This document shows positions 12,417 through 63,809 of a DNA stretch of 64,000 nucleotides, in pieces (position 1 is the stretch's first letter; every line of letters begins with the position of its first letter). The translations under genes were made by a program, and so were the position numbers. This DNA comes from a virus. The notes beneath the pieces are model-generated. The model saw nothing but the letters and a program-made list of their open reading frames with translations, was not told the origin of the DNA and did not search any database. The stretch is taken from the IMG/VR virus record IMGVR_UViG_3300030419_003599, positions 32,001 through 96,000 of that record; one strand, 5' to 3'.

Positions 12417-12427
12417 GGTGTTACAAA

Positions 12428-18400: not shown

Positions 18401-21400
18401 TCTGAAGGTAACGAAGGCTATACTGTCGTTATCCATAGCACAATACCCGGGGCGAGTGGTCGCAATTTCTGTGTATGGCTTGATAACGCTCGCGGTCAAT
18501 CATCATACCGACCAGAGTTCCTTATCGGCCATGGAGGGCGCTTCCGCAATTTCTGGTGTAAGCCCGATGAAGTGCTAATGGAGAATATGCATCCAGCGCC
18601 TATGCCTATCAATAAAGATGGGCGGCCATTCGCCCCAATAACTACTCTTAATGAATACCTCCCTCCAGAAGAGCCTGAAGATGAGTTCCGCAATAATTTG
18701 AATTATGGTTTAATTTCAACAGCGGGAGACCCCGTAACTAATGCTAATAATGAAGCAGTAATGGGACGAGTTCAAAATACTGTTTACCATGATTCGTTTG
18801 AAGGACAAAGCCCTGATTCAGTCCTTACCGAAGGTTTGCGTATGGGTACTCATTCCCATGCTCGCATCAATTTTGGTGGATTAGTGGCAACAGGTGTCCC
18901 CGGCTTTTCACCTGATGCAGGTCAATGGGGTATGGGTAAAAATGGTAACACCCGCTATATACACACTTACGGCAAAAATATAGCAGCGGCTACTAGTGTC
19001 GCTTACACATCAGGTACTACTGGGTCACGCCATGTACCAGCAGCAGATGTGACTGATGATGCTATAGGTAGTACTAGTGAACTCTACGGTCTGCGTTTTA
19101 CTGACCACATAGGGCGAACCCACACAATCCGGTTCATTTATTCACAATTTGGAGAACCATTCGTAAATGAAGATTCTTTATTACCCCCTACAATAGATAA
19201 CGAAATCTGTATTTGGATAGATGACCGCGATTGTGCCCAAGGCGGTTTTACAATTGGTAGGCATATGTGGGGAGCGGGAGAAGTATGCGGGCGTCTTACT
19301 GGAACTAGTGGTAATAATTGGGTAGGAAATGAGTGGAGAGGATATCCATCCCCTGCGTCTGGTATCCATGTAGCGACTGCCTCAGTATCAAGCACTGCTG
19401 TCACTATGACTTTTACTGAACCTTATCACACTGGCAGCAGTCTAACAAACGGAGATATGTTAGGATATTTAGGATTCCCCGATTCAGGCGTTTTCCAATA
19501 TAGTAATGGTAATACTCGCACAGATACTTTTTCCTATACTCACCGTACTCATAATAGTGCATCGGGCACCCATACTTTTTACGGAGTATCTGGTGATACA
19601 TCCCTTTTAGTTAATGATAGAGTCATCACTTCTCGCATTAATTGGACTACCTTATTGACAGATGAAGTTTTAGCCGCTGCTGTAGATTTCGCCATTAATA
19701 TGGAAAATCCTAATTCAGAAAGATTGGCAGAGACTTCTTTTGATTGTACTAATTTAAGGGCAGCAGATGGTAAAACTCTAGGTGAGTGGGGTGTATCACC
19801 TACCGCCATCCGCGTGCGCGCGCATAGCCGTAATCATGAGGTAATGCCTTTACGCTGTTTATTTGAAAGTACTCTCGGGAAAGATTGGGGGCTTAACGCC
19901 AGTAATCTTGATAGTGAATTAAGCGATGCCAATATCACTAATGGTAAGCGTTTTGCTACTGGTTATTTACCGAGCACTGTTCTACATATTACAACGCGTT
20001 ATAGAGGGACAGGAGGGAATACTGCTACTCCTATTCTTGTAGATACAATGAATAATGCGGTAGATACAGAAATATGGAAAGAGAATCTTCGTGGCACTCG
20101 TTACTTGAGTGACCCCGGCGACCTCATTTTACCTAAAATTGAGAATGTCACAATTGAGATTGACCAAGCCACCATTGATACAAGCGCCACTCCTCGCACA
20201 ATGACGGTAGCAGCAGGGTTACAACTTTGGAGACTCTTAGTCCCTGCATCCAATGACACTGATTCTTGGAGTGAAAAGAAAAAGGTATGGCTTGATGACC
20301 AAGATTGGGCAGTAGTAGAAACTACTAACCGAGTACATGCTACTTTCCCCAGTAGAACTGAATTAGTATGGCCATCTACTAATGACGCTGCCATTTCTCC
20401 TGATTGGAATACTAAGATAGAGGCTTTTGATGCTGCTAATATCAATCCGGTATTATCCGCCTATGCTTTACCGGCAGAAGTATTGCAGTTTGATGGTTTG
20501 CGCCTTAAGGGTAGCGAATACGGAGAACCCTTAGTCTATTTCCGAGGAGGGAGAGATAGCCCAGACCACAGCGTCCCTGTCTATTTCGGTGGCGGGTTCA
20601 GCGGTGTAGTGCTTGATATTAATGATGGTACTGCTAATGATTATAGCGACTTCTATACACATCCTTACGCCAAAGGCCCAACTGGTAGCGCGGGATTACA
20701 AAATATTGGAGAAAAATCTACTTCTTATTGTCTTCTTGACTGCGCTGCCATCCTCGCTATGTTCCCCGGCACTCCATTCCTTGATGACCACAAAGGCAGC
20801 AATAACCCTCCCTATTTCAATCAGGATACTATACTCTCTCAAGATACTGATGCAGGCAATAATGCTTCTGCTGCTTCCACAGGTATTACTTATGCTAGTG
20901 GAGGTAATACTGTTAATTGTACTAGACCTAGCCCTGTCATTCTCCGTTTTGGGCATCAGCACGCCCGCTATAGCCCCACAGGAGACGGAGGAGGGAAAAC
21001 TACCTACATTATTTTCGGGCCGGGCCAAGCATTCCCTCATAACACAGCAAGTGTTCAGCCCCAACCTAGCGATATAGTTACTACAGGCAACGGTTGGAGC
21101 AGCGTCCCTGCACCGAATGTCTTTCTCCCTAATGAAATAAGTCACGGAGATTCCACCAGTCGTAGCGGATTCAATGCTAATCTTCCCCCTACTAGGGAGT
21201 TCCAACGAGGTAATGTACAAGGCTGGAATTATGAAACTAATTGGGAACCTGCCCACGGTTCCCCTAATGTGATTTCCGCAGATAACAGCGCTGCCCCCGG
21301 GACAAAGTTTGGTTACGACCAAATGCCGCATAACGGATTATACTATGGCAGTCATTATCAAAATGTGGCTTCATGCACTCCTCCTCCCTATTCGCACCCA

Positions 21401-24400
21401 TTTAATTACTCTCCTTCTTTAGCCAATGCGGCAATCCGCAGGGCTGGATATATTTGGCATATGGATGGCGGTTATCATCCGGGAGGGCATTTCCTTGATA
21501 ATCATATTCTCGCAAATCCATTACACCCTATTGATAATGCAAACATCCCTCATTCTACAGCGGGTAAAAAGCACCCTGCAGGTTATAGAATAGGTAGTCT
21601 ATTGGCGTCTGCTTATGGTGCTACGACACAATACTCCACTGAAGAATATGTAATTATAGATGCTACCCGTGTTCAAAACGCAGAAGAGTTAGCAGCAGTT
21701 CTATCTTGTGGGATTAACGAATGGCCCGGTCGTGACCCCCTCAAGGCTTTGGGTGGCACTTTTTTGCCTTCTTTCCAAAGTGCAAAAAAGCAAGACCGTT
21801 ATGGTTGGGTGACTTTTGACACTGTCGCTGATGGTTATGATGAAGCCTCTGGTTATATTGATGTAGTGAATCCTTATGGTGGAGGTTCTAGCACTATTCC
21901 CCCTATACCTAGATACGGTTGGATTAGAACTAATAAAGGAGGGGCAGGAGTTACAGGATATGGCGCTGGGGCAACTGCCACTTGCGCTCCCTATAATAAT
22001 GTCACAGCGCCTTCTGCTGGTGTATTAAGATTCACTTTAGCGACCAATAGAAGCGGAGCAGCCCGATTGAATGAAACTATTGCCGATTCAGGTACTGACG
22101 CAAACGAAACGACAGTAAGAGGTAATGTCACTAAAGTATATGTGTGGTCTAAATCCAGTTGCCAATTATTCAATAATGGCAGAGTAACTGGTAGCATAAT
22201 CTCTACTGCTACTAGCCAAGACCATATGTGTCGTGTGCATTTTAGTGGGACAGTAGATGCAATTGACCGCACTCGCCCAGTAGGTGCTGTAGGATGGCAT
22301 GGTGAACGCTATTCGTATTTCAACAGCCTTGTTCTTAACAATCCTAGTGACGCATCTACCAATGTCTTTTCGGCTGGTTTAGGCGCTTGGCATCCGTATC
22401 TTGGATTCAGTCCTTATGGCTCTACTTCTACTTGCCAAGGGCCAGTACTACCCAGTAAATATGATGAAAGTACAAGTTCTGTAATAGAGAACGATGGTTG
22501 CCCTCAAGGTCTATCTCCACGCCATTTAGTTGCTGTCACTTATGAATCAGAGATGGCTTTAGCAGCAAAAGCAGATAGAAATGGGACTAAAGCGGCAGGT
22601 GATTGGATTTACGGTAAACAAGGTAGAAGTGGCGCTAGTACTAATTTCGGTGGAACAATTACTGTGGCCGACCAAGTCTACAATCTTGACCGATATGTCG
22701 CTCCCGCGAATGGCGGGCCGAATGTTGAAGCGATGTTCGTTACAGGCCAAACGCAACCAACAAATGGTAACGCTGTAGATACCACATCTTGGTGGCACAC
22801 TCGCGTTACTGCAGCGGCTCACACTAGCCTATCCACACCATGTTCTGCTCCTACTGGTGACCTCTTTTGGGATGACTCCAAAATGAATAGTAACATAATG
22901 CATGCTGACCGCGATAGTCTAAGGACTGATTGCATTCAATTAAACAAGGTCGTATCGGTTACTATAATTAACGGTGGTTCAAATTATAATGCGACTGAAA
23001 CTATTACTATGAGTAATCCTACTGGGGGGACTGCTTTACTTTTGACTATATCTACTGTTAGCGGAGTAAAAGCAGTAACAGGTGTAACTGTGACTACTGC
23101 TGGCTCAGGCTACAAAGTAGGTGATACTCTTACTCAAACAGCCACAAGCGGGAGCGGTACTAATTTTACTTGCAGGGTAACTAGTGTTGGAGATGCAGAC
23201 ACAAGGCCGTGGGAATACTGGAAAAATAGAAGCGCTGGAAGAAACTTCAATGTTGAACATGTAGTTTGGAAGCGAATGGATGGGGGTAATCTCACTATGC
23301 CTGCTTCTAACACACGAGGACTCGGTGGAGTACCGAGAACTACCCGTTTATCTGCGGCTACTGGTTCTATCACTATTGTGGATAAAGGGGGCGGAGCGAC
23401 AGATATTAATCACTTACATAATGCAGATGGGTTTGTACTCACCAATACTGTCGGTTTAGCCAAGGAATATGTGTTTGACAAAACTGGCACATGGGGAGCG
23501 ACTGGTGCCTCCCATGCCAATGGTATTGTTATACAGGTCAATGGGATGTCTGCCGCAGCGGATGTGGCTAACCAAGTGAAAGCAGCGATATTAAGCGCTA
23601 ATGGGCACAATGGCACAATCGCTGCCACTGTCGCTAGTAATGTAGTCAGCCTTGAGCAGCGCACACCGGGCACTGCCGGTAATGTTACGATAGACCCCGG
23701 TAGCACAGCGACCCCTAGTTATATCACATATTCAGGAATGAGCGGAGGAGGAGTTCATACTATGGGTGAAACAATTTATGGTAATTGTAGATTCTCATTT
23801 GAAACTACTAATGCTGCTATGTTCCCAATTATCCAAGCGCAAGAATTAGCCCATCCTCAATTGGCTGAACAACACCCAATAGAATTACGCAATATTCTTT
23901 CAATACCTAATGAAGAGATACAATTCCAAAGTGTCAATGTAGAAGATGATACTGGACAAATCCATATTCTGGAAGGTGGGTCACCTTTCGGTACAGTCAT
24001 TCGTGATTTTGACCATATTGGTGATAGAGCCTCAGAGGGACTTTCCCCGTCTCTTGCTAATAGCGGTTTATCCCCGAATATGCGTATTCGCTTACCTAAT
24101 GCCGATTCTATACCGGGTAATATCATAGTGCGCAGCGGGTTTGACCGCGTGCAATCTTATCAAAATGAGACCTTTGGGAGTGGAGGCATGATGCATCCAG
24201 CGCAACCCGCTCAAGGAGTGAAAGATACTTTCACCAATAATAATGCTCCCGGACCTAGAGCGTGGCCTACTTGGGAAAATAAAGGCTGGGAGCATATTTC
24301 CCAAGACGCAGAAAACATCCGAACAGGAGTTACTTCTGCTCCAGTAGGAGAAGGTACTCGTTTGGCTTTCCCTGACAGCCATAGTCAAGGATGGACTGAC

Positions 24401-27400
24401 CATACGAATGATAATCCGTTAGAAACTGCTTATGAACAACATGACCGTACTCTCTTTTTCCATGTTACTCGTATGGGTCACACTGGCTCTAGTAGAGAAC
24501 CTGTAGTAATTTCATCAAGTAATACTATTTCTGACCCATTAACATACTCTTCATCGGATACTAATACTGTGACAGCAGGGTCTGCCCCTAACGATGCTGT
24601 TTGGAAAAATACAGGAGAACAGACTAGTGATGGTCGCTGGTTTGCTAGAGTGGAGGATGGTACTGGGTCTGGGGCCATTTTCTCTTATACTAACACTTCT
24701 GGTAGCACTTTCACTGGAGTTGTTTTTGACCCTGATTTCTCTACTTTCATATCTGGTAAAACTGGATTGACTATCCGCCCATCATGGTATATACCAGCAG
24801 GCTCCAATCGCTTCTTCGCTGCTCGTAGAATGAGAGACCATTCAGAGATGAGCGGCAATTCACCAGACATGAAGAGATGGGATTGGTCTGCGGCAGGGAC
24901 TCCTCTCAATATGATAACTGCCCCAGAAATGACACCCATGCCTATACCTAGAATGGGTCATCACTATGTGACTCCTACCATGGCTGTAATGCCGGGTCAT
25001 TTCGCCCATCCGTATTATGAGAGAACTTTCAGTAATCATTACGCATGCAGGTCTTCAGGTCATAGTCCTATAGACGAAAGTGGTACAGAATCAACCATTC
25101 CCGGCGCTAACCCATTAGTATGGTTTTCAACACCGACTAACGCTTTACGGCCTAGCGATATACATGGAGGGGCATTTACTCTTTTGACAGAAACTAAGGT
25201 CGCTTACGATGGATATGGTATTGCCGCATCTAAAGGCACTCCCGGAGCAGAAAATGCGACAGGGAGACATATTCTATATCTTGAACCGGCTGGTGCATAT
25301 AGCCTCAAACCTAATTTCCCTGACCCAATGGAAGTGGGCGCTTACCAAATTGTAATACAACCTAATCTGCATAAGCAACAGTTAGGAGGATTCCATAGAA
25401 ATGGTGGAGCAGCCGCCTTACCCGATGGCTCTGTTGTAGAACTTACTGGGCAGCAAGTGAATCTTGTGGTAGGTCTTGATGAAGACTCTTCTAGCCCTAT
25501 GGGTTGCGTTGGGCTTCTTTTAGCCGAAGCCACAATGGCCGATACTCGTGGTTGTGAGATATTCATCAATGAAGTAATGCTTGATTTTGAACCAGACCCC
25601 GGAAGCCAATTCGCTAATATCCCCCCGTTGGGTCTATACAACCCATTAGGGGTGAATGAAAATACAAGCCCCCCATTCAGTCGCCGTAGTCTACCCTATA
25701 GAGCGGGCACTTTTGATAGAGCGACTCCGGGTTACACTATTTCTGTCCCTTGGTGGAGTATATTGCATAAATCAGGGGCAACTCATGCTACATCTACCGG
25801 TTTCCGGCATTTGGAATGGCATAAACCAGATGACTATTATCAATTCTGTAGAGCAACTTACGGGTCTATAGGCTGTCAAATAACTTTGGCTGGTTATCCA
25901 TCTATCTATTTGGATATCTATGAACCCCACCGAAGATTGCGTAGTTTGAACCCTCATTGTGTAGTTCTCGCCGACTCCTCAAGTAGTAGCATTACAGTAG
26001 ATAATAACGAATTATTCCCTGTAAAACCTTACTATGGTGAAGTGCTAGAATATACAGATACTAGTGGGGTTAGACAAACAGCGAGTTATGTGAATAGAAC
26101 TGGCACACTCGCTCATACAATCGCTTCAGGTCCTTCTTCATTTGAGACCGTCGCTGAAATCACAGCGGGCTTTTTCCCTATATCTGCGGGCACAATCCTG
26201 AAACTCTCTCGTGCTTACGATAACTTTGCTACGGGTGATGTTTTCAAGGATTCAGGAACTAGCGCTATTACTCGTGTCTTACCTCAAACTTTGCATGGGA
26301 GTAGAGATACTAATAGCCTCCACCTAGGAGACGCATTCCTTTGTTTATGGCATCCTAATCTTGGTCGCCCTTACACATTCTATAGCGATACAGGGCGCAC
26401 TTTCTATACTAACTCAGGTGCTATAGACGCGCCACAAGATAAGAAAGCATTGAATCATGTACCTGAACACTTTGAAACAATCCATTATCATGACTTCCTC
26501 TATAGTATCAGCAAAGGGCCTTTCTTGTTTGACATGAAAGCAATGGATGCCGCTAACGATGGGACAGTTTATGATGCGACAGGAGTGACAGAGGCCGATA
26601 CGATTGTTGCTGGCGGTTCTGGCTATACCGCAGGGACTGCTGCTACATCAGGGGGTAGCGGGACAGGTTGTACAGTTACTTACACTGTTAGTTCTGGTGC
26701 AGTAAATGGTATTACCGCTATTACCGTGGCAGGCACAGGTTATGTTGTAGGAGATGTACTCACTATAACAGGGGGCGGAGGAAATGCCACTATTAGAGTG
26801 GGCGCTCTAGGGGCATACCCCTCAACCAAACAACCTCAAGGAGATACATCACGCCATTACGCTGGCTTTTGGCCCGGCGGAAGCCGTGGTGGCCCGGCTG
26901 CAAGTAGATTAGATGGTTATGGTTACATCAAAGCAGGATGGGGAGATAATGACTACGGTATGGATTGCATACCATATGCTATACACGGTAGCGGTTCTGC
27001 TAGCGGTTTAGCCCGTACTGCTTATGGTTCTTTGAGCGATGTCCATATCCGTCAAACATGCTTTGGGTATAGATTTGCTGTCCGCCCTCCATACAACAGA
27101 CCCCGCTGGTCACCAAGTGTGCGCGGTATTGACGAAGCCGCTGGTAGTGCTGCCGCTGCCCAACTTCTATCTGGGTATTACCATGGTCCTTTCGTCGCTC
27201 AAGATGATAGAGCGCAAGGGTCAGGTGGTTGGAAGGAGAATGCCAACGCCGCTTTATCTACAGCCGATGTAGCATGGTCTGCCACCGCCACCGGCATTCT
27301 TGAGCGCCAAACTCAAGCCAGCGCTATGCTCGGCAACGACCAAGTTATGCGACAAGTGCGTTATAGTCATGGTCGTAGGATTACTCGTTCTTTTGGGTGC

Positions 27401-28993
27401 CCTGTAAGAACAATTAGAAATGGCGCCACTATGAGAAAGAAGTTCCCCGGAGATGATTTCGCTCTCGGTAAAGATGAACTTGCAGAGGCTCATCGTTTCT
27501 ATCTAATTGACTGGTGGGGTAATACTCGCGGTGAGGATGTTCGCCGATTCCCAGCCCGAGGATTCGGTATCCGTCCTGCTTGGGACCCCGAAGATGCGTA
27601 TCTTGATGGAGGATACGCAAATGAGCCGGGGGCACAAGGGCTATGGCACGCTGATGGCGCTTCTTATCCTTCAGAACAAGAGGGTACTACTAATACAGTA
27701 AATAATGGAACTATGACCAAGGTAGATTGGTATAACCCCAAGAAGGCGCAAAGGATTGGGGATAGAGGTGATGGCCGCGGTTGCCGTTGGCCTACTGCGT
27801 TTAATGAAAGCCTCCTTCATGATATTTCCACGCCAATGGCTGCTACAGGAGTCGTAGCGAGCCATAGTACAGCAGAGCCTCCTTTCAGTACTGGCTATAT
27901 GAGAGCGTCTAATAGCGTACAAAGTAGCACAGAAACACCAAGAGGAATCAGTGCTCGCCTACAAGTATCTCAAGATGGTCTATTGAAACCCGAAGCCAAT
28001 GTAAGTGAAAATATAGAAACGATTAGCGGTACTTTCACTCCCGGCAATGAAACATTGGCTGACCCCATTTCTCGCTCTGCTCCCCGAATTGGTTTGGATA
28101 CTGATACAATCAATGAGTTAAGTGGAGGGCAAGAAACGGATTATATTGGTCTTTCAACGCAAGCGCATAGTCTTCACACAGATAAAGAAGTGGGGCAAAG
28201 GCTTTCATTGAGAGGAGCGCATAATGCAGGCTCTGTGTCCCTCACCCATTTTGACCTCACTAGCCCTACATGGGCGACTCAACCTGATTGCGCAGTATTG
28301 AGAGTCTCTAATGCTCATGCTATGTGGGCACTAGGCGGGACCTATGTGCTTGAGGCGCGGAACTATGTCAAACCGTTTGACGATAGTAATTGGGGGGCAA
28401 GTGGCTCTTCTTCATCTAATCCTTATTCAGATTCTAACCATAATCCACTGGCTAGTAGTGGCACTCAAACCAACTTACGAGATAAGAAAATACGATTCTT
28501 ATTAAGGCCAGTCCGAGTATTGGATAATCGCCATATTGAATTGTTTAGGGCTAATAGCGTTATTTCTGCAGGCCCATCTACAAACAACGATGCTTACCGT
28601 TCTACTGCTGGAGGTAAATACGGTCTCTTCAACTATGAAATGCCCAATGCTCGTGTAGGTACTGTAAGCCCGACCAATCCCCCTTACGCCCCATCTTATA
28701 CAGTAAATAGCGCATCACCTACTGTAACAACTTCTGCTGGACCATTGATTCCCGGAGCAGATGTAACTGGATTCACTGGAGCATTAGACCAAACGGTAGG
28801 GCGTATCCTCATTAGCGAGAATACTTTAGAGCATTTCCGCAGCGATGCCCCTAGGCGCCGGGCAGTTACTGAGGATGACACTGAACTTACTCGCCCCGAT
28901 TATAGCATCCAACCGCGACACAGCCAAACTCTTCATCCGAAAGGTGAAGCAGGTACAGCATCGTATAACACAGGAGACCATAGCACGGAGTGA
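12428..28993 (+). CDS. Giant virion/tail-tip adhesion protein (~5,520 aa) with N-terminal LamG/ConA-like domain
   Basis: Uninterrupted 16.6-kb ORF; probable TTG start at 12428 after GAGGTG. LamG signature TLTIEAWVRPD...HIVAT...LFING...FRGAIEAI...GLWRFEE; repeated GSGY modules. Confidence 0.75.
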   Translation: MTVVGRSSHALLLNGVSDGVVVPLADFTGSDLKLREASSSLPTLGSPVHGVKTSSHNSLKTLTIEAWVRPDCGGVVVSKAETFELKVGQVGEPGPAVFTLFMSNTEGPQIIELSTAYLDATPRWVGTTYPRHGSDLHASYNSNISGVNDATSLNFSHRELLHIVATLRGNIISLFINGSLAVQEVLPESGYRVKMSPGDFEIGGTGGEFRGAIEAIHIANSFNSQMLVGHGPIPLPTTLGLWRFEEPADVHPTIYQSGTFSAGPSVKTITITAASAQSIIEAITGNTYNSASPSVDLTASPYSNGNYKVVDYVSSPGTGNTIAIPHTPYNIMFNADAVNPLTKKPNQKPPERLRLLSVNGATGVLGVESIHLDFTIAGARRGVLCDRTTNVDDHFVLLSGDLLLDSGTGKPYQPPHYASQAIDRTGQMVIDESGNDMHGLIYASSMATTANTTDNPFAAVWPAALDTGFQIGHTGRHALSAVDGHHYLRQLPLANEEIVHQSIDGTADITEIYYDSNYRNLKDSLPPNSRVDIFRDTLKSQVMYVRNEGIAFQMVENGMAGIDDAQRKMLAIGGSGTQNHATTNVFDYQPFLLKNPLEGGVSNDDTAFRRHHLRPIETSRVAILSVPTLGTTHNLAPFVEIHYNAVDVTGASAGLTVGNVVSVSITSGGSGYSAGTAATTGGTGTGCTVTYTVSAGAINAVTAIATKGTDYTVGDILTVSGGGGNATLTVTSVGGPCLMVEKTVPSGEVVLSTGPTVRVLDVIAADLADAAKDTTLYSPGGIIRLDTTEATGNFPAGVTLETLFAADPHEGIDHEDILDESLSPANYTPLHSSDLPNANPTSVDAEHSLTQQDAVFNRLVMNNNNEDLIDQLTITDNYFKRNPSTVNSGVGAYDIGNVSESTHLFESYDIIGAFADKGKRKGITFLIHPTNRSRTNQLSKVASTTTHAQETNTVSVQYLMSRARAQSFSDTDGDERQFTLTCVGLMGDVASRSIDLLGAGAPDSHIVKEVMPGAPVVSVTLGGVGQGAVNTKPTFDPSPFTRLGWNTRRDCATQISVVGAAGGSTATLTVIPLNNDATDLASWGTYCFPKTGRIYLENGGSAEYQSKTGSTFVVDGTTTTGTNKFLNGDGSEAANYAAWLSANTIIAGTLLLVDDKFGDDSTCNDGSTINDRMFQRMDTVSHDYQLGSQYASTRALAEIPLFPHLFFEDRERCITPGPDNSLKLHIDATHTAHTWAPNPVGRRCPDNPPTDQTVHSVFSSNKALKALRKGTHITRTLLDNSGTLEIYVEEPEMFLASTTTATTFGGTPLGVRYFRAFLQNGEWMIYTTVDMVNKKLTIPANLQPAGFSKHFKDTHTVGMRLFPAPGLFDENVPAIRDHPNILSAAYERRRPYYYDRANVQTQGGNIDYGLRQYVSAVEFRAGPRENPHLPKTKTKRARAKVVSWDSGSNFLFLDSALEFPEAGIASKYMVGGAAQFMHRIAYIEAGGTERTAQYLGKQGGNQLLIYAPTIGAGWNPSAGTEVFVKAIENVSATAYPQEIEGPLNASWEHPYAAGGLRDGDTIWMNMHYTNPHAVEGLFCKSRGTFNEAKVSAHFNGGEGALASRPRDSIPLENFLIGNDCLETARNMAQHVNKTIELNWTELGRDDAVPVVAFVDPYQATETFARVLLYDVAHDREFVAMQDIHMQVQSSPATPKIGTGALHEDPDDTGSGFDGIATTTNYSTQLDVAAGFESEDKTLRPNTQSDFMESAFTHNSVWNSQLALATATASHIDHEHHTQDAGCLGDGSFPRTAESVCCPSQAATRHIDSQAPASPINEYATFFDTPEGTRAIPAFLCLKGIRNQTLDLSNHRENRLQHLPHWTQMDFVRRLTIDCGEVGVKEGVTDIEAAAREIVRLINQGGALNGRTHARRPADQYPGESERLDLATIGPNPDAAHSDLDSSAPHLFADFSATGSTFDPAPFWDEEKSFSSYDRGTHMGYIRAHIGRVVEDSEGNEGYTVVIHSTIPGASGRNFCVWLDNARGQSSYRPEFLIGHGGRFRNFWCKPDEVLMENMHPAPMPINKDGRPFAPITTLNEYLPPEEPEDEFRNNLNYGLISTAGDPVTNANNEAVMGRVQNTVYHDSFEGQSPDSVLTEGLRMGTHSHARINFGGLVATGVPGFSPDAGQWGMGKNGNTRYIHTYGKNIAAATSVAYTSGTTGSRHVPAADVTDDAIGSTSELYGLRFTDHIGRTHTIRFIYSQFGEPFVNEDSLLPPTIDNEICIWIDDRDCAQGGFTIGRHMWGAGEVCGRLTGTSGNNWVGNEWRGYPSPASGIHVATASVSSTAVTMTFTEPYHTGSSLTNGDMLGYLGFPDSGVFQYSNGNTRTDTFSYTHRTHNSASGTHTFYGVSGDTSLLVNDRVITSRINWTTLLTDEVLAAAVDFAINMENPNSERLAETSFDCTNLRAADGKTLGEWGVSPTAIRVRAHSRNHEVMPLRCLFESTLGKDWGLNASNLDSELSDANITNGKRFATGYLPSTVLHITTRYRGTGGNTATPILVDTMNNAVDTEIWKENLRGTRYLSDPGDLILPKIENVTIEIDQATIDTSATPRTMTVAAGLQLWRLLVPASNDTDSWSEKKKVWLDDQDWAVVETTNRVHATFPSRTELVWPSTNDAAISPDWNTKIEAFDAANINPVLSAYALPAEVLQFDGLRLKGSEYGEPLVYFRGGRDSPDHSVPVYFGGGFSGVVLDINDGTANDYSDFYTHPYAKGPTGSAGLQNIGEKSTSYCLLDCAAILAMFPGTPFLDDHKGSNNPPYFNQDTILSQDTDAGNNASAASTGITYASGGNTVNCTRPSPVILRFGHQHARYSPTGDGGGKTTYIIFGPGQAFPHNTASVQPQPSDIVTTGNGWSSVPAPNVFLPNEISHGDSTSRSGFNANLPPTREFQRGNVQGWNYETNWEPAHGSPNVISADNSAAPGTKFGYDQMPHNGLYYGSHYQNVASCTPPPYSHPFNYSPSLANAAIRRAGYIWHMDGGYHPGGHFLDNHILANPLHPIDNANIPHSTAGKKHPAGYRIGSLLASAYGATTQYSTEEYVIIDATRVQNAEELAAVLSCGINEWPGRDPLKALGGTFLPSFQSAKKQDRYGWVTFDTVADGYDEASGYIDVVNPYGGGSSTIPPIPRYGWIRTNKGGAGVTGYGAGATATCAPYNNVTAPSAGVLRFTLATNRSGAARLNETIADSGTDANETTVRGNVTKVYVWSKSSCQLFNNGRVTGSIISTATSQDHMCRVHFSGTVDAIDRTRPVGAVGWHGERYSYFNSLVLNNPSDASTNVFSAGLGAWHPYLGFSPYGSTSTCQGPVLPSKYDESTSSVIENDGCPQGLSPRHLVAVTYESEMALAAKADRNGTKAAGDWIYGKQGRSGASTNFGGTITVADQVYNLDRYVAPANGGPNVEAMFVTGQTQPTNGNAVDTTSWWHTRVTAAAHTSLSTPCSAPTGDLFWDDSKMNSNIMHADRDSLRTDCIQLNKVVSVTIINGGSNYNATETITMSNPTGGTALLLTISTVSGVKAVTGVTVTTAGSGYKVGDTLTQTATSGSGTNFTCRVTSVGDADTRPWEYWKNRSAGRNFNVEHVVWKRMDGGNLTMPASNTRGLGGVPRTTRLSAATGSITIVDKGGGATDINHLHNADGFVLTNTVGLAKEYVFDKTGTWGATGASHANGIVIQVNGMSAAADVANQVKAAILSANGHNGTIAATVASNVVSLEQRTPGTAGNVTIDPGSTATPSYITYSGMSGGGVHTMGETIYGNCRFSFETTNAAMFPIIQAQELAHPQLAEQHPIELRNILSIPNEEIQFQSVNVEDDTGQIHILEGGSPFGTVIRDFDHIGDRASEGLSPSLANSGLSPNMRIRLPNADSIPGNIIVRSGFDRVQSYQNETFGSGGMMHPAQPAQGVKDTFTNNNAPGPRAWPTWENKGWEHISQDAENIRTGVTSAPVGEGTRLAFPDSHSQGWTDHTNDNPLETAYEQHDRTLFFHVTRMGHTGSSREPVVISSSNTISDPLTYSSSDTNTVTAGSAPNDAVWKNTGEQTSDGRWFARVEDGTGSGAIFSYTNTSGSTFTGVVFDPDFSTFISGKTGLTIRPSWYIPAGSNRFFAARRMRDHSEMSGNSPDMKRWDWSAAGTPLNMITAPEMTPMPIPRMGHHYVTPTMAVMPGHFAHPYYERTFSNHYACRSSGHSPIDESGTESTIPGANPLVWFSTPTNALRPSDIHGGAFTLLTETKVAYDGYGIAASKGTPGAENATGRHILYLEPAGAYSLKPNFPDPMEVGAYQIVIQPNLHKQQLGGFHRNGGAAALPDGSVVELTGQQVNLVVGLDEDSSSPMGCVGLLLAEATMADTRGCEIFINEVMLDFEPDPGSQFANIPPLGLYNPLGVNENTSPPFSRRSLPYRAGTFDRATPGYTISVPWWSILHKSGATHATSTGFRHLEWHKPDDYYQFCRATYGSIGCQITLAGYPSIYLDIYEPHRRLRSLNPHCVVLADSSSSSITVDNNELFPVKPYYGEVLEYTDTSGVRQTASYVNRTGTLAHTIASGPSSFETVAEITAGFFPISAGTILKLSRAYDNFATGDVFKDSGTSAITRVLPQTLHGSRDTNSLHLGDAFLCLWHPNLGRPYTFYSDTGRTFYTNSGAIDAPQDKKALNHVPEHFETIHYHDFLYSISKGPFLFDMKAMDAANDGTVYDATGVTEADTIVAGGSGYTAGTAATSGGSGTGCTVTYTVSSGAVNGITAITVAGTGYVVGDVLTITGGGGNATIRVGALGAYPSTKQPQGDTSRHYAGFWPGGSRGGPAASRLDGYGYIKAGWGDNDYGMDCIPYAIHGSGSASGLARTAYGSLSDVHIRQTCFGYRFAVRPPYNRPRWSPSVRGIDEAAGSAAAAQLLSGYYHGPFVAQDDRAQGSGGWKENANAALSTADVAWSATATGILERQTQASAMLGNDQVMRQVRYSHGRRITRSFGCPVRTIRNGATMRKKFPGDDFALGKDELAEAHRFYLIDWWGNTRGEDVRRFPARGFGIRPAWDPEDAYLDGGYANEPGAQGLWHADGASYPSEQEGTTNTVNNGTMTKVDWYNPKKAQRIGDRGDGRGCRWPTAFNESLLHDISTPMAATGVVASHSTAEPPFSTGYMRASNSVQSSTETPRGISARLQVSQDGLLKPEANVSENIETISGTFTPGNETLADPISRSAPRIGLDTDTINELSGGQETDYIGLSTQAHSLHTDKEVGQRLSLRGAHNAGSVSLTHFDLTSPTWATQPDCAVLRVSNAHAMWALGGTYVLEARNYVKPFDDSNWGASGSSSSNPYSDSNHNPLASSGTQTNLRDKKIRFLLRPVRVLDNRHIELFRANSVISAGPSTNNDAYRSTAGGKYGLFNYEMPNARVGTVSPTNPPYAPSYTVNSASPTVTTSAGPLIPGADVTGFTGALDQTVGRILISENTLEHFRSDAPRRRAVTEDDTELTRPDYSIQPRHSQTLHPKGEAGTASYNTGDHSTE

Positions 28994-56871: not shown

Positions 56872-56895
56872 TATATTGTTGATGGTTCTTAAAGG
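56872..56895 (-). promoter_or_regulatory. Conserved 24-bp promoter-like motif, copy 6
   Basis: Minus strand CCTTTAAGAACCATCAACAATATA. Confidence 0.78.
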
Positions 56896-56921
56896 AAAAC
56901 TAGACTGGCGAAGGTGAGCAC

Positions 56922-57107
56922 TCATTCGCTATGATGCTCACAGTAATCACCATTTATCGCCAACTTGCGACAACGACTCCGCCTGTTGGTTATACCCATA
57001 CACCTATGGGATTCGGGGGCAGTCACTCTGCATTTGTGGCAAACATTTGATTTGGGGCGGGGTGTCATCGTGTTGTTGCAGATTCTACACTTATGCTGCC
57101 CGACCAT
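56922..57107 (-). CDS. Small double zinc-finger protein
   Basis: CRIC...CHKC and CMGITNRRSRC...YCEHH. Confidence 0.65.
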   Translation of the reverse strand: MVGQHKCRICNNTMTPRPKSNVCHKCRVTAPESHRCMGITNRRSRCRKLAINGDYCEHHSE

Positions 57108-59389
57108 TATTCAACCTCTTCTATCAGAGGGAAGCCCTCATGCTCATGCATCTTAGTGAGTAACGCTGATACAATACCAGCCCTCTCTACTTCATCCCCA
57201 CCATCTAACACAGATTCCACTACCGCCCTCTTCTCTTCAATGATGCGGTCAAAGTGTTCGTCAATCGTGCCTGCGCACGACAGATAAACAGCATGTACAC
57301 TGTCTGCTTCTTGCCCAATGCGGAGCACACGGTCTTCTGCTTGCACTTCCCATCCGGGCACCCACTCGCGCTCTACGAATATCACAGTATCAGCGGCGGT
57401 AAGAGTAATGCCTTCTTTGGCTGCTAGTGTGGAGCACACCAATACATCTAACCCCCCGTCTTGGAACTCTTCCACATTCTCTGCCCTTCTATGAGAGGGG
57501 GTCTCACCAGTGATTGTCTCTACTCGGAGCCCCCCCTCAAGGAGGCTTTCTTCAATAGCCTGTGATACATCACGGTGATGAGCATAAACCACTATTGGCT
57601 TACCTGTTAAGTCGTGGTAATCCATGACCCATTGGGTACAGAAACGCACTTTCATGCGTCCGCACACATGCCGCAAATCTGTGAGCATGTTAAGCACGAA
57701 CCCCGGCGGCATCCCTCCACCACTTTGGTAACGCTCATACCTAGACATCCAATCAAGCCTTGATTGCATATACTCTTTCAACTCACTACTCTCCATCTGC
57801 ACAGGTACGAACGAACGAGTCTTTGTTGGTAGTTCTTTGAGGACTTCCGCCTTCAAGCGTCTAATGGTGAAGTCACGAATGCGCTCATTCAACTCACGAG
57901 TGTTAGATGCGCCGCTGTAATCCCAACCGTACCCATTGTGGTAGGCGTTAGTATAACGCTGTTTGAATTGATATTCATTGGAGAACTGAGAGGGGCGTAG
58001 TAAATTGAGCGTAGTGTAGAACTCCATAGGTCTGTTAGTGATTGCTGTCCCACTTAAGCAAAGGACGGCTTCACAGGTGTTGGCTAGATGGAGAGTGGCT
58101 CTACTCCGTTTGGTGTCCTTGTTCTTCAAGTAGTGACTCTCATCTATGATGCACATATTCACCCCTGCTACTTGTAAATCATCCGCCCTTTTGTACATGA
58201 GGTCGTAATTGATGACGATGAAATCGGTGTCTTGTATGGCATCCTTCCCATTCTTTACCACCGAGCAGGTGGCGTCGGGTAACCATGCTTCTATCTCCTT
58301 AGCCCAATTGAACTTGACATTCGCTGGACAGACTACTGCCACCGGCCATTGCTCTGGGTGCAAAGCAGCGTAGGCAAGTGCCTGTATGGTTTTACCAATA
58401 CCCATATCATCGCCGATAAGACACCGACCACCAGCCAGTTCAGCGAAGGCCACTCCAGCATATTGGAATGGGTAGAGACTCTTGCCTTCGGGGAATACTT
58501 TACTCAAGCGTTCGGCGATGGAGGCTTTCAACTCCTCATCATCAAGGTCTGCTGCTTGAGACAGAGCCACTCTTTTGAGTGCCCCTTCCAGATACTCTTC
58601 TACTTCAGGCACTCCCTTGATAGCATCAGCCAATGGCTGATAATAACCATCCAGTTCTTTGAATAGGGTGTGCCCGTGTGACACAGGGATTGTCCAATGT
58701 TTCTCATCCATGTTGAACTTACGCCCGGGTATGCTCTTCACCTTCAAACGCACGCCATCCCTAAGTTCAGGGTCAGGGATGAACGGCCAATTGAGAATCA
58801 AATTATCCTTATTGATTGAAGCAGTAGCATCTACCTGCTTACGGGTGACCTTGGCTTTAGTGGAGGAGGGGCTTGGAGATGCAAACCCTTGGCTCCCATA
58901 CCCCTCCTCCGTTAAGAGCCAAGGTGAAAAATCAAAATTGTGATGACGCAGTATCTCTACTGCTGTTCGGATGACTTCTTCGTCATCCATAATAGACCAA
59001 ACCTTCATGCCTCTCTCAAATGTGCAGCGAGGCCAAGGCAAGGCGTGCTTTAACGCCTCTTGCGCCTCTTGATTATACGGCATGTGCAATGCTATGCGTG
59101 GGCCATATCTATCCTCGTACCGCATGACGCTGATAATTGGAGTGTCCGCTACTGGTTGTCGGCTAAACTCAAGCAAGGCTTCGGCATCAAACTCAATGCC
59201 TAGTTCCTTAACAATGTCTGGCAACTGGGTGTCGCTATATTTGACGAGCCTCTTGGCTGTGAGAATTGCCTGCTGAGTAGTGATGTGAGGTAAGAATGAA
59301 ACGCGGTAAAGCGGGAGGTAGTCCGGTTTGTTCGGGGCAATATGATTAACAAGTGACCGCGTAAGTTTTAGGATGGTGTCGTTATTCAT
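57107..59389 (-). CDS. SNF2-family helicase, HARP/SMARCAL1-like
   Basis: DDMGIGKT, DESH, SGT, QAEDRVLRIGQ; two HARP-like N-terminal segments; start ATG 59389. Confidence 0.9.
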   Translation of the reverse strand: MNNDTILKLTRSLVNHIAPNKPDYLPLYRVSFLPHITTQQAILTAKRLVKYSDTQLPDIVKELGIEFDAEALLEFSRQPVADTPIISVMRYEDRYGPRIALHMPYNQEAQEALKHALPWPRCTFERGMKVWSIMDDEEVIRTAVEILRHHNFDFSPWLLTEEGYGSQGFASPSPSSTKAKVTRKQVDATASINKDNLILNWPFIPDPELRDGVRLKVKSIPGRKFNMDEKHWTIPVSHGHTLFKELDGYYQPLADAIKGVPEVEEYLEGALKRVALSQAADLDDEELKASIAERLSKVFPEGKSLYPFQYAGVAFAELAGGRCLIGDDMGIGKTIQALAYAALHPEQWPVAVVCPANVKFNWAKEIEAWLPDATCSVVKNGKDAIQDTDFIVINYDLMYKRADDLQVAGVNMCIIDESHYLKNKDTKRSRATLHLANTCEAVLCLSGTAITNRPMEFYTTLNLLRPSQFSNEYQFKQRYTNAYHNGYGWDYSGASNTRELNERIRDFTIRRLKAEVLKELPTKTRSFVPVQMESSELKEYMQSRLDWMSRYERYQSGGGMPPGFVLNMLTDLRHVCGRMKVRFCTQWVMDYHDLTGKPIVVYAHHRDVSQAIEESLLEGGLRVETITGETPSHRRAENVEEFQDGGLDVLVCSTLAAKEGITLTAADTVIFVEREWVPGWEVQAEDRVLRIGQEADSVHAVYLSCAGTIDEHFDRIIEEKRAVVESVLDGGDEVERAGIVSALLTKMHEHEGFPLIEEVE

Positions 59390-59391
59390 GC

Positions 59392-59754
59392 TTAGCACTG
59401 CCTGTAAATATAGATGTAGCCCTTGAGGTCTTCGTCTTCTATTTGGTAATAGTCCATCAGCAACTGTTGCGCCACCCAATCCCAATCAATTGTATTGACA
59501 ATGAATGCAGGCAGGGCTTCAAGTTCAGTGTAATAGATTTCCTCGCACATCTCCTGAGCCCAATCCTTGAGGTCGCCCTTATAACCTTCCCACTCAAACG
59601 CTTCTTCTGCGTCCTCATAGGTAGAGAAACCAATCTCTTCTATGGCTTGGATGTGATGGTATAAGCAGCCGCAGAGGTCATCTTCCTCTTCACAATGCTT
59701 ACAGTATCTTTTGTTTATCCATCGCCCAACATTGTCTATTTCTTTTTTGCTCAT
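59392..59754 (-). CDS. ArdA-like antirestriction (DNA-mimic) protein
   Basis: Acidic; YKGDLKDWAQEMCEE...LPAFIVNTIDWDWVAQQLLMDY...YIYR resembles the ArdA C-terminal domains. Confidence 0.6.
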   Translation of the reverse strand: MSKKEIDNVGRWINKRYCKHCEEEDDLCGCLYHHIQAIEEIGFSTYEDAEEAFEWEGYKGDLKDWAQEMCEEIYYTELEALPAFIVNTIDWDWVAQQLLMDYYQIEDEDLKGYIYIYRQC

Positions 59755-59999
59755 TCTTTCACCTCAAATCCATTTCTCTCCAAGCACTCATCACAACAGT
59801 ACTTACCATCGGGATGACAAATATCATATTGCTGATACCATTCAAGTTCTTCACGCAACCGCTTGACTTCTGCGAGCAGTAGTGGTGCGTCTTGCATGAG
59901 TTCTTTGTCTACATCATTCAATGTCGCAGGTAATCCAATCCAGTCTATCCACACCCAATGAGGGGGCGTATGTCCTTCATATTTGTCTGTGTCAATCAT
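59751..59999 (-). CDS. MIDTDK-array paralog 1
   Basis: MIDTDKYEGHTPPHW...DAPLLLAEVKRLREE. Confidence 0.75.
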   Translation of the reverse strand: MIDTDKYEGHTPPHWVWIDWIGLPATLNDVDKELMQDAPLLLAEVKRLREELEWYQQYDICHPDGKYCCDECLERNGFEVKE

Positions 60000-60313
60000 T
60001 CTTCTTCCTCTCCATGATATTGTGCTTCTATCCCTTTAGCAAGGTCAGCATAAACTTCACACATCTGTTCCATCCATCCTTCTCTTCCCATGTAGTTTTC
60101 ATTCCACCACACTTGAACTGTCCAAGCCATGCTATTCTGTATGCTCTCAAGTTTTTCACGCAACCGCTTGACTTCTGCGAGTAGGTCTTTGTATTCATCT
60201 CGGTAGTATCGCAATATGTCATAGTTGCCTTCGGATATATCCACGCCAACTTCAATCTCTCTCAATACATCATCAAACTCAATCTGTCCTTCGTGTTTGT
60301 CTGTGTCAATCAT
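59996..60313 (-). CDS. MIDTDK-array paralog 2
   Basis: Start reset to ATG 60313 (GGGGTGA RBS); MIDTDKHEGQ...LLAEVKRLREK. Confidence 0.75.
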   Translation of the reverse strand: MIDTDKHEGQIEFDDVLREIEVGVDISEGNYDILRYYRDEYKDLLAEVKRLREKLESIQNSMAWTVQVWWNENYMGREGWMEQMCEVYADLAKGIEAQYHGEEEE

Positions 60314-60314
60314 T

Positions 60315-60500
60315 TCAATCACCCCAATATGCAATATCTTCTTCGTCAAGACCATCGTAGCCTTGATGCTTCATGGCAATCAATTTGTCAGCGCAGTAAT
60401 GATGATACGGTGTTCCGCATGTAGTCATCGTTGCTTCCCCTTCAATTGCTTCTTCGCAGTAAGCGCAGGTGTGTCCTTCGTGTTTGTCTGTGTCAATCAT
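60315..60500 (-). CDS. MIDTDK-array paralog 3 (LIM-like zinc finger, no B module)
   Basis: MIDTDKHEGHTCAYC...YHHYC. Confidence 0.7.
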   Translation of the reverse strand: MIDTDKHEGHTCAYCEEAIEGEATMTTCGTPYHHYCADKLIAMKHQGYDGLDEEDIAYWGD

Positions 60501-60787
60501 TCTTCATTCCTCCAAGGCATCTCCGCTACCAATTCATCAAGTGTCATGTGTGGCTCACCTACAATGTGTAGGTACAATTCATCAGCGACAAGTCGCAACC
60601 GCTTGTACGCTTCAAGGAGAAGTGGTGCGTCTGCGGCAAGTTCAGCATCAACCGTTGTTGCGCCTACTATGTCAAACAGATACGCTTCTGCATCATCTCC
60701 CATTGGTTCAGACCGAATGGTATTGTTGCTGTGCATCCTATACCACGGCGCAGGTGTATGTCCTTCGTATTTGTCTGTGTCAATCAT
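60497..60787 (-). CDS. MIDTDK-array paralog 4
   Basis: MIDTDKYEGHTPAPW...DAELAADAPLLLEAYKRLR, resembling the HTPGPW/AAAPELL phage family. Confidence 0.75.
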   Translation of the reverse strand: MIDTDKYEGHTPAPWYRMHSNNTIRSEPMGDDAEAYLFDIVGATTVDAELAADAPLLLEAYKRLRLVADELYLHIVGEPHMTLDELVAEMPWRNEE

Positions 60788-61029
60788 TCAATCCTCTCCT
60801 TTATTTCCGTAAGAGTTAGTCCTTCTTTCAACGCCAACTCTAAAGCAGGGTGAGGTTGCCTTTGTTCAACATAAATCATCACTTCACGCAATCGTTTGAC
60901 TTCTGCGAGTAGTTCATCGTAAGTATTGAGGTGTCTTTTCCATGCCGCTTCATCTTCTTCACACATTGGGTCTGCAATGAAGTCAAGCAATAGTTGCCTC
61001 ATGTTTTGGTATTTGTTTGTGTCAATCAT
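60784..61029 (-). CDS. MIDTDK-array paralog 5
   Basis: MIDTNKYQNMRQLLLDFI...DELLAEVKRLRE. Confidence 0.75.
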   Translation of the reverse strand: MIDTNKYQNMRQLLLDFIADPMCEEDEAAWKRHLNTYDELLAEVKRLREVMIYVEQRQPHPALELALKEGLTLTEIKERIE

Positions 61030-61250
61030 TCAATCACCTTCTCCAATTCGTTTCGCCAATGTCGCCAATCCTCATCCATACCTTTAGCGATATTGTCAAT
61101 CGCTTCACGCAACCGCTTGACTTCTGCGAGCAGTTCATCAAGCATTGTTAGTTTGTCTTTCCATGCTCCCTCATCCACTTCATCACTCGCAGAATCTATG
61201 AAGTCAAGAAATAGTTGTCTCATGTTTTCGTGTTTGTCTGTATCAATCAT
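61026..61250 (-). CDS. MIDTDK-array paralog 6
   Basis: MIDTDKHENMRQLFLDFI...DELLAEVKRLRE. Confidence 0.75.
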   Translation of the reverse strand: MIDTDKHENMRQLFLDFIDSASDEVDEGAWKDKLTMLDELLAEVKRLREAIDNIAKGMDEDWRHWRNELEKVIE

Positions 61251-61480
61251 TCTTCTTCACCATATCCTTCAATTGAACTTGCACAAGTATAACCCAACTC
61301 AACCTTTAGCCTTGCAGTTATGTATGCAATAGATTTCCAACCAATGTTTTCGCTTTCACGAATCATTAGTTCTGTTTTTTCTCTAAGCAAGTCCTCATAC
61401 TGTTGTTCAAGGTCGCTTTCACTCATGCTGGTTATCTCAAAGTTATCTATCCATAGTTCTATCTCTTCTGCTATATTCAT
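61247..61480 (-). CDS. Hypothetical protein
   Basis: ATGA coupling at both ends. Confidence 0.6.
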   Translation of the reverse strand: MNIAEEIELWIDNFEITSMSESDLEQQYEDLLREKTELMIRESENIGWKSIAYITARLKVELGYTCASSIEGYGEEE

Positions 61481-62113: not shown

Positions 62114-62137
62114 ATTATTGTTGATGGTTCTTAAAGG
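62114..62137 (-). promoter_or_regulatory. Conserved 24-bp promoter-like motif, copy 7
   Basis: Minus strand CCTTTAAGAACCATCAACAATAAT; heads the operon that contains the MIDTDK array. Confidence 0.78.
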
Positions 62138-62142
62138 AATAA

Positions 62143-63133: not shown

Positions 63134-63429
63134 TCCTCGTAACTACCATCCACATTTACCATGACTGTATCGGGGTATTTGATATCCACATTATCAAAAG
63201 CGTATTCCACATCAGATACATACTCCTCAATCATCTCACCATTAGCAAGAGTCATGTAGAGTGTTCCATACTTCACATAAAACTGAACAACTTGCTCGCC
63301 CTTATCCTTGGCCTCTTGTGTCCAGTAGTATGCGTTACCTAGTTCCGCTACATCAAACGCGGCGTGTGTAGTGAAATGTAATTCCACTTGCAGTACTTTC
63401 GTTATATCTATTTCCTTATTTTCATTCAT
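63121..63429 (-). CDS. Hypothetical acidic protein
   Basis: ATGA coupling with the upstream gene. Confidence 0.6.
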   Translation of the reverse strand: MNENKEIDITKVLQVELHFTTHAAFDVAELGNAYYWTQEAKDKGEQVVQFYVKYGTLYMTLANGEMIEEYVSDVEYAFDNVDIKYPDTVMVNVDGSYEEWKE

Positions 63430-63809
63430 TCTTCCTCGCCTCCATGTAGTCTCTCATCTATCTCATCTATCCGTTCAATGAGCATCCACTCATGTTCGTT
63501 ATGACAATCAAGTGAATCAATGAAAGCGTCAAAAGTGGCCTCTCGCTTACGCAACCGCTCAACTTTCGCGAGAAGTTCATCGTAAGTATTGAGGTATCTT
63601 TTCCATGCCGCTTCATCATCTCCACATACATATTCGGTGTAGTCCATCATCGCTGAGTCATTACCATTGACCATATTCTCAGCCCAATCGTATGCTCTAA
63701 TGAGTCGTCCACGCAACCGTCCAACCTCCGCTTCTAACTTCTCGTTCTCTTTTTGTAGGTGCTTAGCCCACGCCAACCGCTTTTCTGCTATTTCATCTAT
63801 CTTTATCAT
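63426..63809 (-). CDS. Outlying array relative with two B-type modules
   Basis: LEAEVGRLRG and DEAAWKRYLNTYDELLAKVERLRKRE; start reset to ATG 63809. Confidence 0.7.
   Translation of the reverse strand: MIKIDEIAEKRLAWAKHLQKENEKLEAEVGRLRGRLIRAYDWAENMVNGNDSAMMDYTEYVCGDDEAAWKRYLNTYDELLAKVERLRKREATFDAFIDSLDCHNEHEWMLIERIDEIDERLHGGEEE

Follow-up and report, generated by a model that had tools for sequence, protein, structure and literature searches.

We analysed a window of 64,000 nt (bases 32001-96000) of the IMG/VR virus record IMGVR_UViG_3300030419_003599, a 108,650-bp genome rated complete by CheckV, and focused on six consecutive small genes on its minus strand (61250-59751). We estimate at about two in three the probability that this array samples locally a very large family of small, acidic proteins that is found in viruses only and whose genes evolve by exchange of cassettes bounded by two short conserved DNA segments, joint A at the gene start and joint B inside the gene. 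Exchange of half-genes and whole genes at the joints, proposed in an earlier sequence-only reading of the window, was supported by the pairings of cassettes across viral genomes, by the positions of the breakpoints and by the choice of codons within the joints.

The six genes, numbered in the direction of transcription, code for proteins of 74, 81, 96, 61, 105 and 82 aa (Table 1). All six proteins start with MIDT[DN]K[HY], and the gene junctions comprise five 4-nt ATGA overlaps and a 1-nt gap at 60315/60313. A repeat search of the window placed the start block in one six-copy family and the second block in a family of four to five copies; a 27-nt stretch of the latter was identical at 59850, 60155 and 61104, had two mismatches at 60883 and was degenerate near 60594, exactly as had been read from the letters. 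The sequence-only reading counted the block LLAEVKRLRE in five genes. Four of them carry the canonical form, the fifth has the degenerate LLEAYKRLR, and the zinc-finger gene has none. The pairwise sharing of segments between the blocks was also as described there, with an HTP..W/DAPLLL segment common to genes 3 and 6 and an NMRQL..LDFI..AWK segment common to genes 1 and 2, and so was the zinc-finger member, gene 4. The array with its two shared DNA blocks is a real feature of the genome.

Two of the genes call for a comment. The body of gene 4 gave weak RING-type Pfam matches (best E 1.7e-4, below the cut-off). This gene is far commoner than its neighbours: its exact 61-aa protein was found on 22 contigs, and its 90% cluster has 22 members. 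For gene 5, an alternative upstream ATG opens a 119-aa open reading frame (59996-60355, minus strand) that overlaps gene 4 at its end. In the protein collection the 105-aa form, which has the family start, was missing; therefore, gene callers probably picked another start.

To delimit the family we compared about 150 viral loci (fetched related loci, designated by L-numbers such as L004 and L010). The exact DNA of joint B occurred in 51 IMG/VR loci and that of joint A in at least 120, many of the joint-bearing loci being on contigs of about 100 kb. We collected 212 distinct proteins with the MIDT.K start, 135 of which had joint B. A profile built from 72 members matched 2,491 representatives at 50% identity with E<=1e-3 (875 with E<=1e-10), and among the matches listed all begin at residue 1. 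The only cellular match was a single one in 185,579 species genomes, with one genome per species. With 2,491 representatives and one cellular match, the family is, as far as such searches can tell, virus-only and extremely diverse. The cellular match came from a 9,259-bp contig (NZMJ01000078.1) of a Maricaulis sp. metagenome-assembled genome, which is probably a viral contig binned into a bacterial genome.

The evidence for exchange came from the combinations of gene halves. Each protein was cut at joint B, and the halves were clustered into N-types and C-types. Among 104 N-clusters, 20 paired with more than one C-cluster, and the same was true in reverse for 20 of 109 C-clusters; one N-type was found with six different C-types. 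In 60 of the 62 gene pairs having the same N-half and different C-halves, the DNA match stopped 20-41 nt past the first base of the 30-nt joint B. For the converse pairs (n=21), counted leftwards from the final base of joint B, the match stopped at 0-54 nt, and in 19 of the 21 the stop was at 16-54 nt, which corresponds to the core of joint B or to its ADAPLLL extension.

A breakpoint map independent of clustering was made by aligning family genes to each other with blastn and recording both ends of every match of 70 nt or longer. Among the right ends, 113 of 398 fell at +20 to +39 of joint B, i.e. at its 3' edge. The left ends gathered at two places, with 134 of 405 at -60 to -21 of joint B (the 5' edge of the extended joint) and 106 of 405 at -40 to -1 of the ATG. 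We observed, therefore, that in the gene-level maps the ends of similarity pile up at the joint edges, in line with the enrichment of breakpoints that the sequence-only reading had proposed.

Comparison of related genomes showed that the order and content of the arrays vary. For example, the loci L111 and L127 are 97% identical over ~7.4 kb and have two family genes in opposite order; one N-half is unrelated between them, exactly from joint A to the DAPKLL...KRLQ joint, while the C-half that follows is 98% identical. Similarly, L004 and L083 are 92% identical and carry wholly different arrays. Both comparisons point to recent exchange. Two genes of the window showed the same kind of mosaic. 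Gene 5 has ~93% DNA identity to a gene of L010 from the ATG through the final base of joint B, with no relation beyond that point. The N-half of gene 1 is homologous to that of a gene in L103, and its C-half to that of a gene in L091 whose own N-half is of the HTPxPW type. Judged by these alignments, genes 5 and 1 are recombinant relative to L010, L103 and L091.

The joints are conserved at the level of DNA. Within the window alone, identical residues shared their codon with a frequency of 0.92 in joint A; the value was 0.65 for joint B and 0.56 outside the joints. The earlier claim that synonymous identity is concentrated in the joints thus held clearly within the window for joint A only; the strong signal of joint B was seen across genomes. 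Against ascertainment bias, joint B was scored in loci found via joint A, and joint A in loci found via joint B. In the canonical joint B the codons GTC, CGG, TTG and CGT were used in 93%, 83%, 93% and 93% of cases, compared to backgrounds of 24%, 9%, 20% and 19%, respectively. In joint A, ATT and ACA were each used in 100% of cases and GGA in 97% (backgrounds of 40%, 33% and 23%). A logo of joint A from 80 distinct contexts had 1.7-2.0 bits across the first 20 nt.

The proportion of synonymous differences (pS) in joint A was 0.15 between genes with unrelated bodies, compared to 0.39-0.42 between homologous cassettes. Amino-acid constraint alone, under which synonymous sites in the joints would be saturated, does not account for such a pattern: the joint codons are far more uniform than codon usage explains. 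Overall, the DNA-level signal is very strong for joint A and the canonical joint B and weaker for joint B as a whole. The ratio of nonsynonymous to synonymous substitution rates was 0.39 for N-halves and 0.20 for C-halves; these ratios indicate that the cassettes are under purifying selection and, therefore, that they encode working parts of proteins.

Both joints could also serve the expression and the assembly of the proteins. A purine-rich stretch resembling a Shine-Dalgarno (SD) sequence lies at -12 to -5 of joint A and is contributed by the acidic C-terminal codons of the preceding gene. The start regions of all six copies were less structured than shuffled controls, with all fold z-scores positive. 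Given the SD-like run and the unstructured starts, joint A would also make a good cassette for translation re-initiation.

For joint B, an AlphaFold2 model of the gene 6 protein had a predicted local distance difference test score (pLDDT) of 74 overall and placed the joint in a helix (residues 38-57) that is its most confident part. The homodimer model reached an interface score (ipSAE) of 0.46, compared to 0.02 for the best of three controls; in calibration, 20 of 30 proteins solved as one-chain pairs scored this high, as did 1 of 23 solved as single chains. The homodimer runs had at least 34% of contacts in common and pLDDT of at least 58. The contacts were in register (41-41, 45-45, 48-48 and 52-52, formed by L41, V45, L48 and L52). 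In the model, joint B is the core of a parallel two-stranded zipper, which supports the shared coiled coil suggested in the sequence-only reading. The zipper and start roles account for the conservation of amino acids, not for the choice of single codons.

In our reading, each gene opens with joint A, which comprises the SD-like stretch, the ATG and ~26 nt that code for MIDTDKYEGH. A variable N-half follows, then joint B (30-60 nt, coding for (ADAP)LLLAEVKRLRE) and a variable C-half, at the end of which the stop codon is overlapped by joint A of the next gene. Since both joints are conserved as DNA and are in frame, ordinary homologous recombination or template switching could act on them, either between co-infecting relatives or between non-allelic copies. 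An N-half would then be replaced from joint A to joint B, and a C-half from joint B to the next joint A. Whole genes could be moved, added or deleted as well, and the reading frame and the translational coupling would be kept each time. The products would be dimers, as the modelling suggests, displaying variable N- and C-terminal heads.

We infer that homology drives the exchange. Candidate enzymes are the viral ERCC4 and PD-(D/E)XK nucleases, the SNF2 helicase, the replisome and the host RadA. As to the role of the proteins, their small size, acidity, position in a replication-side operon and rapid turnover lead us to guess at host takeover or counter-defence.

Several observations weigh against joint-bounded exchange as the mode of evolution of the array. 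When joint B was taken in the broad sense, with LLEAYKRL-type variants included, its pS was 0.35-0.43, no lower than that of homologous cassettes, at synonymous sites that were not saturated; strong conservation at the DNA level is limited to the canonical LL[AE]EVKRLR form. The joints were not more alike within genomes than between them, so local gene conversion in general was not supported; a population-wide pool fits this likeness better. A gene upstream of the array (63426-63809) reads as a C-cassette fused in frame to the middle portion of an N-cassette like that of gene 2. Its fusion point lies away from any joint, and exchange is, therefore, not strictly limited to the joints. Both joints have plausible first-order functions, and conservation alone is no proof that they are kept up as recombination sites.

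Other points on the same side concern the data and the searches. Genes 1 and 3 were recorded solely from this contig, so their arrangement represents a single assembly, and queries with the 120-aa gene and the helicase downstream of the array found no near-identical genome, the relatives having 54-65% protein identity. A coarse test of the ends of high-scoring segment pairs between ~90%-identical loci placed 10 of 265 within 15 nt of a joint (3.1 expected) and, in array neighbourhoods, 10 of 94 (5.5 expected). This is a modest, two- to three-fold excess, and we relied instead on the gene-level breakpoint maps. No recombinase was identified, as neither AAA_24 (Sak4-type) nor Rad51/RadA had a match in the genome; the Sak4-like ATPase invoked in the sequence-only reading thus found no counterpart. 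Searches of Pfam, PDB and Foldseek matched the family proteins to no fold or family of known function.

The rare Lys-His (AAACAC) variant of joint A was present in three of the six window genes, on unrelated bodies, compared to 2 of 207 family genes elsewhere. It is possibly a mark of local conversion or of lineage.

Some of these points would be expected if the joints were conserved for first-order function only, with joint A being a translation-initiation or regulatory cassette (a repressor operator or an open re-initiation start) and joint B a dimer zipper, and if the mosaics arose by rare illegitimate recombination anywhere, with selection keeping the intact chimeras. The open starts of all six genes, the SD-like stretch at -12 to -5 and the modelled dimer interface at joint B agree with such an explanation, and so do the pS of the broad-sense joint B, the lack of within-genome homogenisation and the fusion outside the joints. 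Use of a single codon in 83-100% of cases, the rare CGG with its 9% background included, goes beyond what protein function asks for, and joint A is retained on bodies with unrelated folds. Breakpoints within a few bases of the joint edges in dozens of independent pairs are produced more readily by homology-guided exchange. We consider the purely functional explanation unlikely.

Assembly is another possible source of mosaics. The data come entirely from short-read metagenome assemblies, the joints repeat exactly, and the single-contig record of genes 1 and 3 would suit misjoining at the repeated 26-45-nt joints. On the other hand, such repeats do not reach the length of typical reads or of the larger assembly k-mers. 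Identical multi-gene arrays were assembled from different metagenomes (L010=L013, L011=L023, L016=L052, L004=L025=L022 and L127=L144), the arrangement of L127 being thereby found again in L144, and the exact proteins of genes 2, 4 and 6 were present on 3, 22 and 6 contigs, respectively. With arrays recurring in this way, we judged chimeric assembly very improbable.

Plain tandem duplication with fast divergence of the variable parts, and no exchange between copies or genomes, could explain why genes 1 and 2 resemble duplicates formed locally (spacing of 221 nt, with 89% identity across 55 nt) and why genes 3 and 6 have motifs in common. It is contradicted by the incongruent pairings of halves, since one N-half occurs with up to six unrelated C-halves and the reverse also occurs, as well as by the abrupt shifts from >90% identity to unrelated sequence and by the replacement of an N-half between 97%-identical genomes. 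To duplication alone we give the least credence of all the explanations considered.

A dedicated diversification machine acting on the joints, be it a diversity-generating retroelement, a shufflon-type site-specific recombinase or a homing element, might be suspected from the extreme conservation of the short joints, which resembles that of recombinase target sites. The complete 108.6-kb genome had no match to a reverse transcriptase (RVT_1) or a tyrosine integrase, as the sequence-only reading had anticipated in seeing no dedicated recombinase; the missing RVT_1 match rules against a diversity-generating retroelement. Moreover, the joints are direct and not inverted repeats, and whole segments are replaced, which is not targeted point mutation. 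The chance that such a machine is at work appears very small.

An extension of cassette exchange at the joints would be that the joints are kept as recombination signals, that magroviruses reassort in frame a shared pool of thousands of N- and C-cassettes, and that co-expressed paralogues heterodimerise, all products having the same zipper. We put this forward tentatively and regard it, taken as a whole, as rather doubtful.

With respect to known families, no Pfam family reached its cut-off for the six genes or the 72 relatives; the matches seen were weak, sub-threshold or scattered over single members. Membership in the Ead/Ea22 proteins, considered in the sequence-only reading, did not hold up: PF13935 (Ead_Ea22; profile cut-off of 27 bits) had no match on the six proteins at E<=1, on the 72 relatives at E<=0.01, or in a six-frame search of the whole genome at E<=1, in which controls did match. 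The only library family with real sequence similarity to the array family was phrog_1273 of PHROGs, matched by 26 of the 72 relatives, all HTPxPW-type members, with the best E 7.4e-11. In the window it was matched by gene 3 alone, weakly (E 6.6e-4 and 7.4e-5), the other five genes, gene 6 included, being unmatched. The match spans HTPxPW through the KRLR helix; phrog_1273 carries no annotation and does not cover members without the HTPxPW half.

A tblastn search against 50,697 phage records gave nothing below E 0.6; at that value there were three mycobacteriophage hypothetical proteins, which we note as a lead only. A sequence profile search of PDB returned weak coiled-coil noise, and Foldseek against PDB and BFVD returned nothing with E below 6. 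In the ESM Atlas the matches were unnamed viral clusters, with one lead, PF27050, in 19% of the members of one cluster.

Conserved-motif recombination in T-even tail-fibre and adhesin genes was reportedly described by Tetart et al. in 1998. There the recombination occurs at glycine-rich gp38 motifs and His boxes (PMC3157838). As in the array, short conserved in-frame motifs serve as crossover points for swapping segments, which in the adhesins determine specificity. The adhesins, however, are large single-copy structural proteins of host range, while the array belongs to a family of mini-proteins that an archaeal virus encodes in its replication-side operon, and the start of each gene holds a second joint.

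A closer parallel in behaviour is modular shuffling of the promoter-early stem-loop (PeSL) cassettes of T4-type phages (Arbiol et al. 2010, PMC2839356; Comeau et al. 2014, PMC4122927); PeSL-like motifs were also suggested for the archaeal virus HGTV-1 (PMC3950731). In both systems short repeated DNA motifs border small accessory genes in a hyperplastic region, and no dedicated recombinase appears to take part. Close relatives differ by motif-bounded insertions, deletions, replacements and reorderings, as seen here in the L111/L127 pair and in the breakpoint statistics. A PeSL is an intergenic promoter with a terminator hairpin, whereas the joints of the array are coding, in frame and without a hairpin. 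The array genes are ATGA-coupled in what appears to be one transcription unit, the promoter-like 24-mers occur only outside the array, and one of the joints is inside the genes, so that half-genes are exchanged along with whole genes. Mini-circles have been demonstrated for the phage PeSLs.

The Ead/Ea22 proteins of lambdoid phages (Pfam PF13935; PMC10834534) are also small, acidic and oligomeric products of an early or accessory region, with a shared N-terminal part, a coiled coil and mosaic C-terminal domains. The likeness is one of design, with no evidence of homology and no detectable sequence relationship to PF13935. The array proteins are much shorter (61-105 aa compared to 182 aa for Ea22), are encoded in tandem arrays and have variable parts on both sides of the zipper. 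Overall, the behaviour of the array matches PeSL shuffling and the mosaic Ea22 proteins. What sets it apart is the coding in-frame joints, two per gene, and the reassortment of half-genes in a coupled array. The magrovirus literature that we searched did not mention the family.

Among the proteins encoded in the viral record are a family-B DNA polymerase (PolB), an SNF2 helicase and a thermosome-type chaperonin, two nucleases (ERCC4 and PD-(D/E)XK) and an RFC-like ATPase. The combination of thermosome and SNF2 helicase was described for group A magroviruses of Marine Group II archaea (PMC5434244). The record has the corresponding gene content, namely a ~100-kb tailed-virus genome with PolB, a thermosome-type chaperonin and an SNF2 helicase in the replicative block. 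Because these genes match that description, we assign the genome, by gene content, to group-A-type magroviruses. Its structural block contains a single open frame of 5,526 aa (12413-28993, plus strand).

Downstream of the array lie a 120-aa gene and the SNF2-family helicase, a conserved neighbour with homologues in 41 of the fetched loci. Neither of the names given to these two genes in the sequence-only reading was borne out: the helicase has SNF2 and Helicase_C domains with no HARP match, and the supposed ArdA-like gene had no Pfam match at E<=1, to ArdA or any other family, and weak PHROG matches. The relatives of the 120-aa gene are few, at 54% identity.

A 24-nt motif (TTCCTTTAAGAACCATCAACAATA and close variants) has seven minus-strand copies with up to three mismatches at 36704-62139 of the window, compared to 0 expected. 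It looks like an archaeal promoter with a TTTAAG box. The copies sit upstream of genes on the same strand in the replication-side block. Copies at 62139 and 56874 flank the array, which therefore appears to form one unit with four other small genes, the 120-aa acidic protein and the helicase. The twelve small proteins of the unit are all acidic, with isoelectric points (pI) of 4.05-4.90.

The fusion gene at 63426-63809 is a distant, partial seventh relative. It has 87% DNA identity to 60886-60963, the matching segments being the middle of gene 2 and 63549-63626, and tblastn matches to C-halves in L027, L033 and L016. Beyond the window end, at 98560-98880 of the genome, a 106-aa gene has DDEVKRLRE inside an otherwise unrelated protein; by its sequence it may be another remnant of joint B.

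Table 1. Coordinates of the array genes, of the joints and of neighbouring features in the window.
Feature	Position	Strand	Description or basis
Family gene 1, 74 aa	61026-61250	-	joint A, NMRQL-type N-half, joint B, C-half
Family gene 2, 81 aa	60784-61029	-	joint A (MIDTNK), NMRQL-type N-half, joint B with 2 nt changes, unique C-half
Family gene 3, 96 aa	60497-60787	-	HTPAPW-type N-half, degenerate joint B (LLEAYKRLR)
Family gene 4, 61 aa	60315-60500	-	joint A and Cys/His zinc-finger body, without joint B
Family gene 5, 105 aa from the MIDTDK start	59996-60313	-	family-type ATG
Family gene 6, 82 aa	59751-59999	-	HTPPHW-type N-half, joint B, Cys-rich C-half
Joint A, ~26 nt from ATG	59974-59999, 60288-60313, 60475-60500, 60762-60787, 61004-61029, 61225-61250	-	repeat family
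Joint B, 30 nt encoding LLAEVKRLRE	59850-59879, 60155-60184, 60883-60912, 61104-61133; degenerate 60590-60619	-	repeats, motif positions, codon uniformity
120-aa gene downstream of the array	59392-59754	-	pI 4.2, 6 Cys
SNF2-family helicase, conserved neighbour downstream of the array	57107-59389	-	Pfam SNF2-rel_dom 2e-37 and Helicase_C
Promoter-like 24-mer with TTTAAG box	62116-62139; next copy downstream 56874-56897	-	motif scan
Distant seventh relative, partial	63426-63809	-	no joint A, two joint-B-like blocks

Magroviruses infect marine Poseidoniales; they are abundant and uncultured, and the majority of their small genes lack annotation. Our analysis defines a very large family in them (50%-identity clusters number at least 2,491), for which the evolutionary mechanism is clear and can be tested. 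It takes motif-mediated modular shuffling beyond intergenic regulatory cassettes, to coding joints that lie in frame in an archaeal virus. The proteins would make up a natural set of mini-proteins scaffolded on the modelled zipper, with the variable heads being candidates for host-interaction functions. In practice, the joints of 26 and 30 nt could be used as polymerase chain reaction or hybridisation handles for sampling the cassette pool from seawater. If cassettes are indeed drawn from a combinatorial pool, heterodimers would multiply the repertoire of host-targeting or counter-defence specificities, and viruses of one of the ocean's most abundant archaea would possess a recombination-based generator of diversity that works without a dedicated enzyme.

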